Program-made: the position numbers and the translations under genes
Assembly: GCA_008632985.1 (NCBI GenBank)
Contig: QPGO01000036.1
Location: 302,122-322,121 of the forward strand
Length of the DNA stretch: 20,000 nt
From: Psammoneis japonica
Taxonomy: Eukaryota
Reading direction: 5' to 3'
In this document: piece by piece, positions 1 to 20,000 of the stretch
Layout of the letters: each line of letters opens with the position of its first letter
How positions within the stretch are numbered: position 1 is the first letter of the stretch
The notes under the pieces: model-generated
Database searches by the model: none
What the model was told of the DNA's origin: nothing
Seen by the model: the letters and a program-made list of their open reading frames with translations, nothing else

Positions 1-840
1 GACCAGGACAGAGAGTGGATTGCGACAGGAGTGTGCCATTGTCATTGGCAGATGTTGGATTGGAGAACAGGTTGTGAAGGACAGATGTGACAGAAACAGA
101 GCAAAACAAAGGGAGAGAGCTGACAAATGGAAGCAAAAGGGAGCAAATGGAGCTGTTCTCAATGAGGTGAACATGTGAACAAAACAAGCCACACAGGTGA
201 CTTCAAACGAGCAAAAAATCTTTCAATTGTTCATGAGTTAAAAGCTGTGAAGGGACAAAATCATCATCCATGTAAATTGAACAGATGTGGAAACAATCAG
301 CACAAACATGAAAATTTTGACAATTGATGAGTGCCACTCTGTCCAAGCATGGAAACATGTCACAGATGGTTGCAGCCCAGTGCACTTGCAATGTGGCATG
401 TCTTTTGTTGGGCACTGAGTCATGTGTGCAGTTGACAGGACTCAAGCCCTTCAACCTGCAACAAGGGCAGAGCTTGAAAGTGTGCACAGAGGACAGGTGA
501 AACACTTGACAGGCTGAGGCAGGACAGCCATGTCACATGCTTGGGAGGTTTGCAGATGAACCACAGAGTCCAGAGGGCATGTGTGCAGAGTGTGGGTGCT
601 TGGGAGTCATTCTTGTTGGGAGCATGTGCAAAAGTGACACCCCTGTGTTCTCTTCAGGACATCAGAGAAAACCCAAGTTTGATTGCCTGCATGCACTGCA
701 ACTGGTTGCTGGCTCTGCTTCAACTGTTGTGCACTCACCAAGCGCCATGGATCATGAAACACCACAGGGCCCCAAAGAGAAAAATGGAAAGCACGCTGTT
801 CACTCATCACGTGTGTGGAGAAGGAACTGCATCACAAATT
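1..840. other. TpA/CpG-depleted hypermutated island 1 (relic sequence, open at the window start)
   Basis: Hand count for 1-720: 2 CG and 2 TA, with none of either in 301-720. The minus-strand ORF 203..505 is Cys/His-rich with a single Tyr. Composition returns to normal over ~850-950. Confidence 0.85.
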
Positions 841-1067
841 CACAAATGGCAAACGGGAAGCAAATTAAGACTGTAGCGACTGTGCTCCGCTCAAGAATCA
901 AGAGTGGAGTGACTTTCTGCGAATGCTTGGGTTAGCAACTGCCAGTGGATTCAACAATCGCTGCAGTCGGTGCGACGAAGAACTAGCGCTTGGATTCATT
1001 GCGGGCTAGATGACAGGCTGTTCTAATCCTTAGATAGATTTTACTAACTTCTCTACAATCAGCTTGA

Positions 1068-3875: not shown

Positions 3876-4040
3876 AACGAAATAATAGGTGTGACTTGTT
3901 GCTTGAGCTTAGAATTGAGATTAATGGATTTTAATTTGTGCTCGAACGCTCTCAACAACGACTAATAGGTGTGACTTGTTGCTTGAGTTAGAATTGAGCT
4001 TAATGGGTTAAGGTGTGTTCAAACGCTCTCAACAACGACT
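3876..4040 (+). repeat. Tandem direct repeat, two diverged ~80-bp copies
   Basis: taataggtgtgacttgttgcttgag...aacgctctcaacaacgac begins at 3883 and again at 3963. Confidence 0.9.
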
Positions 4041-9780: not shown

Positions 9781-9980
9781 ATCCTCACTTACTCCAGTAG
9801 TCATTGAAGCCGTATCGGAATTCATCCATAATGTCACTATGCAATAGAGTTGACCTTAAGCCTAACCTGCCCAAGCCCATTGATAGGATTAGAGAAAGGC
9901 GACTGGCTTCCGGAATATCGGTAAAGATTTCATGCTCGTGGCTGGTTAACGACAAGCCCATAGCCCAATCTCTTTGTCTG

Positions 9981-10117
9981 ACTTCGAGCCAAAGTAAGCT
10001 AAATGGTTAGTGTAAATCGTTAAGTGTCATTTCCACTTCGACACAAAGAAAGCTAAATGGTTAGTGTAAATCGTTAAGTGTCATTTCCACTTCCATACAA
10101 AGACAGCTAAATGCTTA
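9981..10117 (+). repeat. 54-bp tandem repeat, ~2.5 copies
   Basis: aagctaaatggttagtgtaaatcgttaagtgtcatttccacttc at 9996 and 10050, with a partial copy cagctaaatg at 10104 and acttcg at both 9981 and 10035. Confidence 0.9.
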
Positions 10118-10330
10118 ACGGTAGTGGTCAGATTTCAAAATCTGAGCAATACAGAAATGTCAATGATGAATAAGGATTTTAGATTGCTTCTGCCGTAAAT
10201 ATCATTACGCCAATGCCACTAATGAATACACAAATGAATTTGTATTCCATCCTTTTCCTGAACTTTGATCTATCGGCATTTTCGATACGAGTGCTCGACG
10301 CGATGACAATGAGGCATGCTTGTATGTGTC

Positions 10331-10720
10331 ATGGCCATAAGCTGTGAGGCGTACCGTCACATTTGGATTGAACTCGGGGATCTTGATGTCGAAAGTAGCC
10401 ATTTGTTTGACATTCGTGATTTTTCATCGCCCACAAACTGGGATTTCAACTGAGTCGAGTTGATGTTGGACGTGTTTCAAAGCACTGCGTTTGATGAAAC
10501 AATTGAGGGCTCTGGAATTATGGCATTTTATGCCATGGAGACTTAAAACAGCAAATGGGTTGACAATCAAGCAGTGATCGGGTTTGCCAACATTTCCAAA
10601 AATGTGACAACAAAAGTTGCATCACTCAACAACCAACAACATCTCAAGAGATGGAAACAAGAAAAGTGACTCCTCTTTGCACTTGAATTAAAAGAGACAA
10701 CAATGCACAACAAACATTTG
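10331..10720 (+). pseudogene. Degenerate reading frame of unknown identity crossing into island 2
   Basis: One frame reads MAISCEAYRHIWIELGNLDVESSHLFDIRDFSSPTNWDFN*VELMLDVFQSTAFDETIEGSGIMAFYAMET*NSKWVDNQAVIGFANISKNVTTKVASLNNQQHLKRWKQEK*LLFALELK, with stops at 10451 (TGA), 10544 (TAA) and 10667 (TGA). Confidence 0.4.
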
Positions 10721-12480
10721 AGAAGGACAAGAAGCTCTTGAATGCATGGAACCAGAAGAGAGTCAATGAATCGCTCTTGTTTTGAACCTCTTGACCTGTT
10801 CTGTCCATGATGGTGGTTGGCTGAAAGGTTGGTGGTGGTTTTTTTGTGTGACTTGCAGCTTGAGGCATGTTGATGCATGAACACATGGCCCATGTGTGGT
10901 GTCACCTTTGGAAAGTGCCACTTGTGGAGCTTGGGTGGACAACTCTCTGTGCTCAAGCTTTGTCTGCCAAATGCTCCATCAAAGTCCAGATGCTGCCACA
11001 TCCCACCCGACCATTGACACAAAACAGTTCTTGCAAAATGTTGTTGCCTGTTTCCCTCTTCCTCTGCAGAGCAGCCCTCTTGGTGACAGTGCTGCCCACA
11101 TGCCAGAATGTGCTCAAGAATGCTTTCCATTTTGCCAGCAAAGATGCCCAACGCGGGGCTGTGTGGGCTCGAATCTCTCTCAAGACAAGCTGACATTTGT
11201 GCCTGGCACTGGCGGCAATGCTCAGCCCTCCTTCCTGTTTGACTTCCCAGGAGTGTGCCCAGATCTCCTGCGTGCTGAGTGGCTCAACCACAAGAGTCGC
11301 TGTCTTTGTCAGTTTTGTCAGCAGGATGTGCCAAGGCTGCTCTGGCCATGTGTGCGCAAGGACAGCTGCGACAGCGCTTTCTGCTGTCAGCAAAGAGTGT
11401 GAGCTGGCTGGACTGCCCAACCCCACACTTCACAGCTCCTTGGCAGTCACTCCAAATCAAGTGCCAACTTGGGGTCAACCGCACCTGGCTGGTTGCAATG
11501 CAAAGACAGCTGTGGCAGCACTTTGTGACAACAAAGAGAGTGCGAGCTGGCTGGGCTCCCAACCCCACACTTCACAGCCCCTCAGCACTGGCTCCCAATC
11601 AAATGCCAACTTGGGGCCAATGGCTGTGAAGCCATCATTGCAAATCCCTGTGCCTGCCCCCTCACACAGCTTTGCACAGGGTCAACATGTGTGGCCTTTG
11701 CAAGATGGGCCCTGGCTGGCTGCTGGCTCTTCAGCCACACGGCTTGCACAACAAGCCACCACAACACAGAGCACTGTGGGGTGAGTGCAGCACAGCCCAA
11801 ACAAGCACACCATGCTGAGATCACCCAGAGTTGGCTGCTGTCCTGGGGCTCCATTCAAAGCTGGGCTGGGCTGCTTGGCTCCTTGGTGTGCAGCACATGC
11901 TTGGCATCACATTCTTGTTGCCAAGCAGCCACATGGCATGTGCCCACCATTTGTGCCTGCAACAGCGACCCCAGCCACAAAGAAGCCAACAAAAAGTTGA
12001 ACCTGGTTTTGTGGTTGAAGAGTGAAGAAACTGTGAGTGAAGTTTGGTTCAAGATTTGTTGGCAATGCCAAGTGCGCAACCAAAGAGAGGCGCCAAAAAT
12101 GGCTGTTCTCGCTCATTTCTCAAGAGGAGCTTGCGCTCATGATGCAGGGTCTGAAGCAAGCACCAGCCAAGACAACAGTTTTTTCTCTCTGCCCCACTTA
12201 AAACACAGCCTTTGAGTCAATGTGGTGCTCCTTCAACAACTCACGCACACTGGGAAGAGCAGCTAGAGCCAGGGCAGCTGGCCTGGCAGGGCTTGGCTGA
12301 CACCCAAGCTGGGCTGCTCAGCCTGGTGGCACACACTCAGTGCCACATTGTCACCCTCCTGCAACTGCAATGTGCCCCACTCTTTGCACCTGCAGCAACC
12401 ACCCTGGATCAAAAGAAGCCAGTGCAACTCTGGCCATGGTTGCATGGTCAATTGTGTGTGTGTGTTCAACGGTTGATTCC
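10560..12480. other. TpA/CpG-depleted hypermutated island 2 with relic plus-strand coding sequence
   Basis: Hand count for 10561-12480: 3 TA and ~22 CG. No TA at all between 10691 and 12198. ORFs are Tyr-free and Cys/His-rich. Confidence 0.88.
11361..11620 (+). repeat. Diverged direct repeat with ~144-bp period inside island 2
   Basis: gacagctg...caaagag...gagctggctgg...cccaaccccacacttcacagc...tgccaacttgggg begins at 11361 and at 11505. Confidence 0.85.
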
Positions 12481-12762
12481 CCTCTTTTTTTTCTCTTTTC
12501 CTTTAACCGGCCACGGACATGAAAAAATTGCCGGAATATCGAGAAATATGCGTTTGTCTGTTCAATGACTTGAGTGCGAGTGACGTCCCGCCTTGTTTTT
12601 TCCGCTTTGCTACCGTGCGTCTGCGTTTTCACTGTGAAGCACGCAGCACGCAATGAGCACTGATTGTCTTCACTTGCGTCTCGCTCAGTCTCTCCCGCTG
12701 TTGTGTGCTGTTTGCCTTACTTGTGCATAAACTTATCAGTGTACGAGCTCCTCTGCGGGAGA

Positions 12763-13885: not shown

Positions 13886-14939
13886 TGGCAGAATGCTGCA
13901 ACAAGAATGCCTTCCCAATGTAACGAGGACGAGTTCTGCGTAAAAAGTATCACGGATGTTAACATCTTGATTCAACCCGGCGAGAACAATGTGTTAATTT
14001 AATTCCCAAAATACGCTTGCGGTGAAGACCTTGTGCTGTTCCACTCCGACATTTTTCGGAGAAGACCATTAAAAAAGAATGTGGGTGTGAGGCCACTGAC
14101 AAGACAGAGATTCCTGCGGTGGGTTGATACCATTGTGGGCTGCTCAGGCGTTGATGGGACGGACACCCATCTTCTTCCTAAGACTTCCTAAGACCTGCTT
14201 TTTCGTTTCAAAGTGAGTGGTCGTCACGTCTGTACGGAGGGCGAAGCGAAAATTTCTTTTCGTGCGGATGTTTGACACTCCCGATGACTCTAGTGTCGAC
14301 TCCAAAGACTACGACAATCAGAGAAAGTCTATCGGGTGATAGCCGCGGTGATGGTGATTCACCACGAGATGCGAGGCATTTGTGGCAACGAGTATCTGGA
14401 TGTTCGTGTGGTTACGATGGACAGCAGGCGGCAGGGAACACTTATGGTGTGGATGTTGCAAACGAGCTTGAGCTTTTGGATTTCGGAAACGATGGGTAGA
14501 AACGGGCAATCGAGTTCAGATTCCTTGAGTATCTTTTTCCAAAGATGGCTTAAGTCCCGAGTAGAATCGCCATAATTCGGAAGGAAATGGCGTGGCGGGT
14601 TGTTTGAGTCGAACCTCTCTTTTCACAACGCGATCTAAATACATTAACATTGTGGCACTACATTAGGGGGTACAGCTGCGCTCGGCTGTTCGAGTTGCTC
14701 TATAAGATTGCTTCTACTTTACATGGGGAATTGTTGATGTACTGCTGTAACATGTCAGGTCGGCTATGCCATTGTGCCAAGTCTCTTTGCATTTTCAACC
14801 CAGATTGCAGTACATTCTTTGCTCAAAACTTCCGCGCAACTTTGGCTCCAGATTCCAAACGTTTGGACAGATTTTTCAGATGACAGTGGGCCGAGTCTCA
14901 TCACCCTGCACGCTTCTCACCAAATTTCTCTTACCAGCC

Positions 14940-16595
14940 TTTCTTGCCACAAACTTTCAACTCATGGATGATGTCACATGGTGTCCTGAAAAGTGGGGTC
15001 TTGTGATGCTCTCACAGTTGGGCACCTTGATGCATTGTTGGATGTGATGTTTTTTCCAACTTCCCCACTCTGTGCAATGAAGGTGATTTGTGTGCAGCAA
15101 GTCCACAGGTGCAGTGTGCTGCACACTGCACACTGTGCAACAACAATGCTGACAGTGGACAGTGGCTGGATGTGAGGAACTGCTGGACAGCTTTGCATTG
15201 ACATGTGATGCATGTGCTTTGTGAAAGTTCATCAACTGGTGGCATTGACCATTGATTGGCATTTTTCTGCCTGGTGTGGGCAGCAGGTTTTGACTGGTTT
15301 GACTTGAGCAAAGCAGAGTCAGCCCACAAAAACAATTTGGTGTCAAAGTGGGGAGAGCTGACAGCTGCACAAGCACCCATCTCCAACAAAGGCAGCTGCA
15401 CTCAAGGACAAGGAACAGCATGTGAAGCAAAGTGCAAAATGTGGACAAGGAGCTTGTGCAGAAACAGAATGTCCAGCCACTGCAAGAGGCTGAGCAAGAA
15501 GCAAGAAGCCAGAGGGGGGCAAGAGCCCACACAGAGAGAAGAGTGGTGTGCACTGTGCCTTAAAGAGCTGGGTAGAAGGGGCAAACAAAATGCCAAAAAG
15601 AGAAATTGTGAGACTGTTTTGGGCACCAAAAGCAAGCAGGGTCAGGGTTGGGGTTAGGGTGTGACCCAGCAAGAGAGCTCATTGCCACCCCCATCAGCTG
15701 GCTGGCCAAGAACCCTGCACAGGTTGTCCATGACCAAGCAGTGCCCCACAAAGTGTTGCTTTTCAATGCCACTTTGAGGTGTGCTCCAGTTGCAGCTAAG
15801 AGCTGCCTCACAAAAAACTGTTTTGACACTTGTCACAATCTCCCAGCATGCAAATGTGTGATTGGAGCCTGCAAAGGGCATCTCTCTGCAACCATGTGCT
15901 GCTTCTGTCAAATGAGAGCAAGCACACTTGCTCCATGTGAGTGGACCTCTCTGCAGAGCTGGACAGTCATCTTTGCAGCTTTGGTGCAGAGCTCCCAACC
16001 CAATGCTTCACAGAAACACCAAGAACAACAAGAGCAGAGACAATGGAAAGCACCTGTGTGCATTGGAGCAGCAAGCAGCTTGAGCAACAACAAAAAGAAA
16101 AAGGGAAAGAGGAACAAAAAGAAGAGCAAAATCCAGGCGTTTTGTGTTTGCAAAAAGCTTGGGAAGGTGCAGCATCTGAGGTGGCCAGAAATGATCTCTG
16201 AAGGTGCGGTTTTGTGATGATGACATGTGAGCAAAGTCAAGAAGCCACACAAAGACAAGCAAGTCAACTTGGCACAGCATTGGCCAGAGTGGCAGCTCAA
16301 GAATGCACACAATCACCTGCAGGGCACCACCAAGCAGCATGGCCACCCTGGCCAGCTCCCACAGCTCTCTGTCACAGAGCTCTGCCTCTTGCAGCCTCAA
16401 TTCAGGACACTTTGTGGCAAAGTTGAAAAAAAATGTGATTTGATCAACACGTGCCTGATGTGGAGGCAGGAAGAAAGTGGGCAGAACTGGCTTGTGAAAA
16501 AGTGCAAACTTCTGAGAGAGGTGAGCTGGAGTCACGTTCACCCCCAGCAACTGCTGACGACATCAAAGAGCCTTGCTCTGCTGCAGCGTGTGCGC
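14940..16595. other. TpA/CpG-depleted hypermutated island 3 with relic plus-strand coding sequence, ending at the assembly gap
   Basis: Hand count for 14941-16440: 4 TA and 2 CG, with none of either in 14941-15540. Long Tyr-free ORFs at 15256..15657, 15648..16217 and 16227..16595. Confidence 0.9.
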
Positions 16596-17131
16596 NNNNN
16601 NNNNNNNNNNNNNNNNNNNNNNNNNNNNNNNNNNNNNNNNNNNNNNNNNNNNNNNNNNNNNNNNNNNNNNNNNNNNNNNNNNNNNNNNNNNNNNNNNNNN
16701 NNNNNNNNNNNNNNNNNNNNNNNNNNNNNNNNNNNNNNNNNNNNNNNNNNNNNNNNNNNNNNNNNNNNNNNNNNNNNNNNNNNNNNNNNNNNNNNNNNNN
16801 NNNNNNNNNNNNNNNNNNNNNNNNNNNNNNNNNNNNNNNNNNNNNNNNNNNNNNNNNNNNNNNNNNNNNNNNNNNNNNNNNNNNNNNNNNNNNNNNNNNN
16901 NNNNNNNNNNNNNNNNNNNNNNNNNNNNNNNNNNNNNNNNNNNNNNNNNNNNNNNNNNNNNNNNNNNNNNNNNNNNNNNNNNNNNNNNNNNNNNNNNNNN
17001 NNNNNNNNNNNNNNNNNNNNNNNNNNNNNNNNNNNNNNNNNNNNNNNNNNNNNNNNNNNNNNNNNNNNNNNNNNNNNNNNNNNNNNNNNNNNNNNNNNNN
17101 NNNNNNNNNNNNNNNNNNNNNNNNNNNNNNN
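16596..17131. other. Assembly gap (536 N)
   Basis: Run of N. Confidence 1.
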
Positions 17132-18947: not shown

Positions 18948-20000
18948 AGTAGGATCGAAGAGGCGTAGTCAAGCAAATTGATGCGTGATTGTGGTAGGGC
19001 AGCAATATAATGGGATGGATTGAATTTACCAGCAAACGTATCAACATCTCGTATTATGTTCAAACTTCTAATCTCGCACGTCCATTTTATGGCCTCTCTG
19101 GTTTGGGTGGCCTGGGAAACGAGGCAAACAAACACGAATCCCACGGAGGATTAGAAATAAGCAGTGGAACGATGCAGTGTGAGTCGCCATAGTGTGCTTA
19201 CGGTCCACAAGGCTGAAGCATTTTCTGACGAAGAAAAGCAAAGACCGAGAACGGAGCAAATCGAAAAACACTTCGCAGCTTATCCCTCCAGCATCTGACT
19301 CCTTACTCAACCGACACTCTCATTCTGTGCTACGGTGTACGGTAGTAAGAAAGCTGGTCATAGTGTCCAACATGACTAGTCTAGCATACGAGTAGGTGTC
19401 GCGATTGTTGGTTGCGGTTGCTGTGAAAAAAATACTAGCGTGGCAGGAAAAACGCAGCGCAGCGACGAAAGCAAACAACTCGAAGAAAACGACTCAACAC
19501 AGTTCGGAGATTTCTGAACGCACTATATGATATCGTCATGTCGGCATGGACGGTCCCAACATGCTGCACCTCGCCTTGAGTTGCTCCGCTGAAATGGCGG
19601 CGCCGCCAGCGTTGCTCATCGTGAAGAGTCGTCACTCGTTACACAGCAGAAAAGTGCGGTGATTGAGCGGTGAGATGCAGTGTGCGTGCGTCGAGCGGCG
19701 GCCGGACGTTGAGAGTTTGAGATAGGTAGATACCGGGGTAGTCTAGGGCCCTAGATAGAGCAGAGAGCGAGCGAGAGGGAGCGATGGATGCTGCAAGGGA
19801 CAAGACACAGTGCATGTTGTGTTCTTGAAATTGGCGACAAATTTAAGAATGAGAAGGAGGCAGTGGTGGTGTGCACCATGTTGAAGGTGCTAGCAGCAAA
19901 AGGTTAAAGGTGCTGCTGGTCAAAAGAGTGGACGCAGCTCTCAGCAAAACAGCTGGTGGGCTGGGCGAGAACAGCTCGCCAAAAACAAAGAAGTCCACCC

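Follow-up and report, generated by a model that had tools for sequence, protein, structure and literature searches.

TA loss and CpG decay as probably separate mutational processes on transposon DNA of the diatom Psammoneis japonica

The window and the transposon carrying island 2

The window analysed here is a stretch of 20,000 bp of Psammoneis japonica DNA, in which islands poor in TA and CG dinucleotides lie among host genes. Island 2 is the interior of a transposon inserted between a NAD(P)-binding protein gene, which ends at about 9780, and an acetyltransferase frame, which starts at about 12664 and has its likely promoter close by. Matches of the acetyltransferase include the diatoms Seminavis, Attheya and Cylindrotheca, and the remaining genes of the window are ordinary. 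Host DNA at 3883-4040 holds a local repeat of ~80 bp, and at the window end (19750-20000) TA and CG thin again ahead of N gaps, probably marking a fourth island. The features are listed below, with observed over expected frequencies as o/e.

1..870 (no strand): island 1, for comparison; terminal part of a TA/CG-poor domain of at least 10 kb
9912..9919 (+): left 8-bp target-site duplication, recurring at 12533-12540
9920..12532 (+): non-autonomous terminal-inverted-repeat DNA transposon of a young multicopy family; 2,613 bp, sharp alignment borders in 30 fetched loci
9920..9949 (+): left terminal inverted repeat of 30 bp; pairs with its right counterpart at 23 of 30 positions, starts with GG and is common to the autonomous-like elements
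9920..10490 (+): 5' segment retaining TA and CG; 31 TA (o/e 0.62) and 24 CG (o/e 1.01), with bursts of TA change visible here in other copies
9981..10142 (+): three 54-bp subterminal tandem repeats, from repeat analysis of the window
10561..12480 (no strand): island 2, the interior of the element; has 3 TA and 22 CG and gave no sign of coding
10689..10690 (no strand): TA that survives within TTAA, the context that resists change best; present in 51 of 51 covering copies
10691..12198 (no strand): stretch free of TA; 19 CG
11356..11620 (+): internal direct repeat, two copies ~142 bp apart and ~80% identical, from repeat analysis and alignment
12199..12200 (no strand): surviving TA in TTAA; TG or CA by editing in 9 of 52 copies
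12264..12265 (no strand): new TA private to the window copy; TG in the 50 other covering copies
12503..12532 (-): right terminal inverted repeat; 30 bp, imperfect
12533..12540 (+): right 8-bp target-site duplication; 2,621 bp, the element plus one duplication, are missing from a short-read contig
14912..16595 (no strand): island 3, for comparison; an old repeat relic with 5 TA and 7 CG, abutting the N gap at 16596-17131

A genome search with the element gave 130 candidates, and most of the 40 that were scored were 98-100% identical across the whole query. Perfect 8-bp target duplications flank 10 of 11 solitary full copies, and the end motif of the element occurs 48 + 49 times in the genome (control, 0). 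The window site itself is crossed without the element by a 12,489-bp short-read contig, which comes from the single listed sample and so is not independent material. This empty site shows that the insertion is polymorphic and very recent, and the element is still mobile; the existence of an empty allele also makes any effect of the element on expression of the acetyltransferase testable. Elsewhere, copies form head-to-tail arrays of 2-5 units (C87:16973-30067, C90:29314-42408, and on C23, C15, C84 and C56) with spacers of 6 bp, which in most cases match the final 6 bp of the target duplication. Junctions like these are known from copy-out/paste-in IS elements. The array junctions are found in short-read contigs too, and the C87 array is a mix of haplotypes and spacers.

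Autonomous-like partners share with the element its ends and first ~360 bp. Their ORF (L059, L071, L072) reaches 1,491 aa, has an internal 3'-5' exonuclease domain and resembles DUF6729+exonuclease proteins; PF01612 was the sole family in a Pfam scan of two partner ORFs. Merlin and hAT are TIR DNA transposons that likewise make 8-bp target duplications. An assignment to Merlin was dropped since its domain PF12762 (IS1595-type DDE transposase) had 0 matches in the genome, of which the assembly may be incomplete. Zisupton/Dileera TIR transposons, as far as the source text describes them, have in common with the element an 8-bp target duplication and short imperfect inverted repeats (PMC12730594). 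In contrast to Zisupton/Dileera, Merlin and hAT, the partner ORF here carries a 3'-5' exonuclease and is DUF6729-like, and we do not file the element as a KDZ member. DUF6729 transposons were not mentioned in the literature searched.

A preliminary description of the window had reported that TA is missing from 10691 to 12198 while some 20 CGs persist in island 2, and that island 3 has lost both almost completely. All three statements hold. Consecutive TAs start at 10689 and 12199, the longest TA gap of the window (1,510 bp); 22 CGs lie within 10561-12480, 19 of them inside the TA-free stretch; and the TAs and CGs left in island 3 amount to 7.8% and 6.8% of the host level, with 0 CG in the subregion 14912-16137. 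After correction for base composition, o/e in island 2 was 0.027 for TA (3/109.4) and 0.168 for CG (22/130.7), against 0.617 and 0.993 in host DNA of the window. Retention relative to host is thus 4.4% and 17% (binomial p = 0.019 over the interval of the preliminary description), and the correction weakens the difference without abolishing it. The same test on the TA-free stretch, with borders picked post hoc, gave p = 0.0008. Between islands 2 and 3 the CG content is different (p = 0.038), and for TA no difference appears (p = 0.50). Host stretches of the window have a TA o/e of 0.57-0.63 versus 0.03-0.05 in islands, and as far as the window and the fetched loci show, host genes are spared; TA is depleted, with CA and TG at ~2x expectation. 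The pattern is real, yet the gap between TA and CG is modest from the window alone, and the strong evidence comes from other copies.

The TA poverty of the interior extends to the whole family. All 54 of 54 aligned copies have a TA o/e of 0-0.09 and a CG o/e of 0.01-0.18, and relatives at 65% identity show the same anatomy: their first 600 bp contain 25 and 22 TA, the part after it 1 and 3 TA (16 and 17 CG). The uniform interior, together with the empty site in short reads, shows that the loss was inherited and not made at the window locus. The founder was already TA-poor, an outcome that the preliminary description had named as refuting its proposal, and the idea of TAs being lost within island 2 itself fails. 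Two of the three remaining TAs lie in TTAA and the third is the new private one. The interior matches only older non-autonomous relatives; a TA-rich ancestor was sought among autonomous-like elements and other fetched loci, and no match appeared. An erased gene in island 2 is also unsupported: five frames scanned with Pfam gave no family above cut-off, codon periodicity was absent from seven 300-bp bins (lowest p = 0.063), and one frame searched against 1.84 billion proteins had a single borderline match (E = 9.6e-4). TA and CG content is unable to date a repeat insertion unless the state of its founder is known.

Bursts of TA change in sister copies and the fate of CGs

The assembled copy C87:19586-16973 has 23 of 36 TAs changed (15 to CA, 8 to TG) and 1 of 46 CGs (Fisher p = 3e-10), and over 2,441 bases it shows just 2 transitions of other kinds; TA changes number 0 in the four tandem sisters, at >99% identity. 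Summed over seven burst copies, which leave C176 aside, 134 of 245 TAs were changed versus 23 of 292 CGs (p = 3e-34). In 51 copies the 5' segment is represented by 300 bp or more; 10 of these lost at least one third of its TAs and the rest are near intact. TA/CG counts in this segment are 28-34/22-26 in intact copies, 9/23, 9/26, 9/25, 6/23 and 11/25 in burst copies, and 1/11 and 4/5 in the old copies C176 and C13. The C307 interior is island-3-like, with 0 TA and 1 CG in 1,047 bp. Two short terminal fragments (C467:8310, C84:216240) are not part of the copy set, in which fuller projections stand for eight partial segments; C13 was pruned from parsimony.

Autonomous-like elements behave in the same manner. 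Within 2 kb, C420 changed at 27 of its 73 TA sites and at one of 95 CGs, and in their first 3.4 kb C115 and C361 share 148 CG but 12 TA, with 37 TG/CA-discordant sites. When a TA-intact transposase-like protein is aligned with two TA-poor relatives, 27 and 30 of its 40 Tyr face Cys or His, and the change must therefore have run from TA to TG/CA. We also scored 640 non-redundant 500-bp windows, drawn from loci fetched around transposons and so biased to transposon neighbourhoods rather than representing the whole genome: 55 were TA-poor with normal CG, 0 were TA-normal with low CG, and 156 of 321 TA-poor windows were also CG-poor. These data demonstrate the spectrum, direction and order of the changes and their episodic distribution among copies. 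They bear out the earlier proposals that TA removal does not arise as a side effect of CpG decay and that it is the faster of the two losses.

The bursts are mostly independent events, as indicated by TG/CA conflicts at shared sites. The exception is C91a and C91b, where 23 of 23 changes are identical; both lie in a ~10 kb segmental duplication on C91 (L057, L058), 16 kb apart, so that one burst copy is carried twice, and C91b was dropped as a duplicate. C54 shares 13 of 18 changes with C107 and 13 of 20 with C91, and some common descent of these bursts is possible. Apart from the segmental duplication, none of the 8 inferred bursts falls on internal branches, which make up half of the tree length. 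A TA-poor flank adjoins 5 of 8 burst units versus 6 of 24 others (p = 0.088, with one flank missing in two burst units), which is no more than suggestive of spreading from TA-poor neighbours.

Could the whole pattern be inherited or selected, through captured TA-free DNA, a frozen accident or avoidance of TA against TA-targeting transposons? Such a history would suit an interior that is TA-poor in every copy and in the 65%-identity relatives, the failure to find a TA-rich source, and a window difference of only p = 0.019. Selection is unable, however, to take 23 of 36 TAs from one copy with almost nothing else altered, and such a history is at odds with the re-editing of new interior TAs (see below) and with the destruction of Tyr codons in a needed protein. 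We regard it as very improbable overall: it is refuted for the whole family and true for the origin of the window locus. An artefact of assembly or consensus is scarcely credible. N gaps and mosaic tandem arrays do occur in the assembly, which derives from one sample, but short-read contigs cover 30 of 30 bins with the same alternative alleles and tandem junctions, places with T>C (55) and A>G (38) are in excess there, and the bursts vary by copy and obey a context rule.

Other elements show further patterns. In three autonomous-like copies, L071 1107-7360 (C115), L072 2602-8853 (C361) and L073 1425-7521 (C165), TA loss occupies the first ~3.4 kb and the last ~2.8 kb is spared, and the C420 changes fade by 1.9 kb. 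The flanks upstream of these copies are TA-poor, and those downstream of C115 and C361 are normal. The 3.4-kb border could reflect promoter distance or spreading from neighbours; a search with the spared part gave no explanation for it. The partner ORF (L059, L071, L072) remains open after TA erasure because TA>TG/CA creates no stop out of sense codons. A Gypsy-type retrotransposon (L117 4116-9300, C115) has TA-poor ends, a TA-normal pol middle and normal CG throughout, and a Helitron-like element (L118 1266-6922, C361) is TA-poor over 10 kb with moderate CG. Copia-type elements (L062 1891-7674, L066 2654-10000, L054 5283-9998) have long open frames with very few Tyr; their TA is close to zero and their CG fully retained, and they are early-stage targets.

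The preliminary description also raised the possibility that some residual CGs are new, formed by TA>TG/CA>CG. This route is mostly unsupported: at the 22 window CG sites TA is absent from all 53 copies, and direct TA>CG changes do not exceed background (see below). An older copy carries CG at 20 of the 22 sites, and at 14 of the 22 both TG and CA occur in other copies. Between an ancestral and a derived origin, the former thus fits most residual CGs and the latter a few, namely 11152 (from CT) and 12075 (from GG), both by transversion, and 11543 (from TG). Direction-free parsimony favoured CG alone as root state at 8 of the 22 and tied it with others at 7 more, so that the ancestral reading leans on known CpG decay. 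Some 7 further sites gained CG from TG/CA in the young clade, at a rate not obviously raised.

In that clade, counted with two burst copies excluded, 24 of 33 interior CG sites are polymorphic versus 1 of 24 in the 5' segment and 21 of 1,805 background columns. Flips of TG>TA>CA or CA>TA>TG at 11862, 12246 and 12301 indicate that new interior TAs were edited again. Direction-free parsimony over the interior gave 26 CG gains versus 29 losses, by which steady state and ongoing decay are poorly separable, and interior CG o/e falls weakly with terminal branch length (rho -0.24, p = 0.08). Ancestral states were taken from sister copies and parsimony, and recombination among copies inflates the event counts. 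On this comparison the residual CGs appear to be mostly ancestral and still decaying. For island 3, the best relatives over >600 bp are 65-74% identical and have CG where island 3 has TG/CA, against 98-100% identity and an empty site for island 2. The two islands thus differ in history, as had been supposed, and island 3 is an old immobile relic, in agreement with a longer time under CpG decay. Its frame at 15612-16217 encodes a Cys-rich motif with no match in Pfam, which we take to recall the piggyBac C-terminal domain with Tyr read as Cys.

Sequence rule and possible chemistry of TA change

Sorted by the preceding base, A>G changes affected 135 of 438 TA, 14 of 843 AA, 7 of 666 CA and 1 of 541 GA, so that TA is hit ~18x more often than AA. 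C420 alone gave 27 of 147 for TA versus 1/326, 1/294 and 1/285 in the other contexts (3/905), and 1/95 for CG. A context model of 418 site-by-copy observations, whose fit is optimistic, like the p values, because the same sites recur across copies, gave relative values of 1 (A), 4.3 (C), 1.6 (G) and 4.4 (T) for the base after A, and of 1 (A), 0.49 (C), 0.51 (G) and 0.34 (T) for the base before T. Surviving TAs mirror this rule: TTAA is enriched 4.7-fold, CTAA/TTAG are also enriched, and ATAT accounts for 0 of 648.

Both strands are edited, with TG and CA products mixed in 10 of 10 copies examined. A processive single-strand deaminase might give runs of one product; strand-coordinated runs were not seen overall (103 runs versus 103.7 expected, P = 0.48), a point against such an enzyme; for C420 alone, P = 0.03 (uncorrected). 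TA became CG at 3 of 166 edited sites, where 46.9 would be expected if both strands were fixed jointly and ~2.5 from background. These counts demonstrate the context dependence and the rarity of double changes.

Error-prone repair offers one account of this spectrum, in which TA is lost as a by-product when CpG is methylated: an error-prone Pol eta-like polymerase, drawn in as deaminated 5-methylcytosine is repaired, would cause A>G at WA nearby. Both losses do fall on the same repeat domains, as in the 156 of 321 TA-poor windows that are CG-poor as well; the interior combines raised TA change with raised CG change; and AA>G (14/843) exceeds GA>G (1/541). The mutagenesis signature of Pol eta is WA, with AA and TA both hit. 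The ~18-fold excess of TA over AA does not follow this signature, edited and unedited TAs are equally distant from the nearest CG (p = 0.72), and both facts argue against WA-type polymerase error at methylated CG repair. The bursts also bring almost no CG loss (1/46, 1/95) and almost no transversions, and the term CpG is absent from the text of the preprint that describes a comparable hypermutation in Bigelowiella natans (bioRxiv 10.64898/2026.01.13.699255). We consider such a by-product quite improbable.

We therefore favour, with good though not full confidence, two separate mutational processes on repeat DNA in this diatom, TA change first and CpG decay second. The first would be a fast, episodic, kilobase-scale mutator that turns TpA into TpG or CpA. 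It would strike either strand, but at any site only one at a time, and the first change to become fixed would thus destroy the target. Its preferred sites would have C or T following the A (TAY, ATAY above all), with TTAA and CTAG spared. The second would be a slower CpG to TpG/CpA decay that follows, as expected of 5-methylcytosine deamination, and methylation would then be the cause of the CG loss. Island 2, the interior of a still mobile transposon, would descend from an ancestor that underwent the first process long ago, with new TAs now re-edited and CGs, at ~0.15 of expectation, decaying; in island 3 the second process would be exhausted too. TA editing may have a role in defence.

As to the chemistry, deamination of A to inosine by a TadA/ADAT-type enzyme on transiently unpaired DNA is the leading candidate, in view of TadA-like preferences, and given the rest of the scheme we hold it about evenly balanced against all else. 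TadA-derived adenine base editors, in the source text, favour A>G after T, raise it before C and lower it before A (PMC8989541). They differ in being engineered and guided and in having a mild T preference, whereas the process here is near-absolute for TA, with TAT equal to TAC. A chemistry on the thymine side is unlikely but would give the same TA>CA/TG changes: the T of TpA, modified or oxidised (e.g. TET/JBP-like), would mispair with G. The attacked base of a palindrome is indistinguishable by sequence, the rule read on the T strand becomes a preference for RTA, and TET/JBP genes are tied to fungal transposons in the part of the source consulted (PMC12730594); the A-strand reading, in turn, fits the TadA-type preferences just given. 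The thymine-side alternative alters the chemistry only and leaves the conclusion of two processes unaffected.

The genome has 9 deaminase-family matches, none singled out as a candidate; the one examined, TadA-like with a hydrophobic N-terminal extension, is probably an ordinary organellar tRNA enzyme. PF00145 C5-methyltransferase matches number 27, several with stops, clustered on C297, C10 and C28, and none is linked to the process. They show only that such enzymes may exist, and some may be transposon-borne.

Known systems and significance for transposon silencing

TpA hypermutation of integrated NCLDV and virophage DNA is described in Bigelowiella natans, at ~6e-7 per site per generation in mutation-accumulation lines, with an ADAT2-like deaminase proposed as the cause and unproven there; in the text available, the signature extends to transposon-like genes (Mettrop et al., bioRxiv 10.64898/2026.01.13.699255). 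Judged from that text, the likeness is close: TpA>TpG/CpA on both strands, confined to foreign (there) or repeated (here) DNA, with long-term TA loss and gain of TG and CA, and non-constitutive in both cases, striking some cell lines there and some copies here. The targets differ, being single-copy viral inserts there and multicopy DNA transposons in a diatom here, and so does the extent, with a TA loss of at least 95% here versus a Rho of 0.45 in the NCLDV region. CpG decay trails TA loss here, and "CpG" and "diatom" have 0 occurrences in the preprint text. That text gives neither a flanking-base rule nor a single-hit test, and its Table S2 may hold flanking contexts; new in the present analysis are the copy-level bursts, the context rule and the single-hit test. 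The process here works like B. natans TpA hypermutation, in a different lineage and on a different target class. In the literature searched, which takes in few subscription journals, there was no report of TA erasure in diatoms, and a TA-directed A:T-to-G:C mutator was shown in one rhizarian alga only.

RIP of ascomycetes converts CpA/TpG to TpA and so enriches TA; it is premeiotic, homology-triggered and RID-dependent, and leaves strand-coordinated mutation tracts. RIP and the process here are both repeat-associated and burst-like, with dinucleotide-specific transitions that disable mobile DNA. The chemistry and direction are opposite, however, since RIP adds TA and the process here removes it, and here there are no strand-coordinated runs and tandem sisters >99% identical escaped. 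Deamination of 5-methylcytosine, the established route of CpG decay, cannot remove TA and would correspond to the slower second process. Diatom transposons are described as CG-methylated islands, dependent on DNMT5, and the CG>TG/CA loss seen here, confined to repeats in a genome otherwise CG-normal, resembles what the source text reports (PMC9998398).

The element family provides near-isogenic before-and-after pairs, in which the TA process is separate from CpG decay and faster. Any candidate enzyme must reproduce both the sequence rule and the single-hit constraint. We suggest tentatively, and with less than even confidence, that diatoms possess a natural DNA adenine editor for genome defence that would be independent of cytosine methylation and shared with a distant alga. 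It would act in short episodes on kilobase domains of single copies, striking TAY one strand at a time, destroying Tyr codons without creating stops and keeping struck copies from seeding new ones; the ratio of TA to CG would then be a two-clock record of silencing. If the activity is a true natural DNA adenosine deaminase, transposon defence would gain a new arm, and engineered adenine base editors would have a counterpart in nature.
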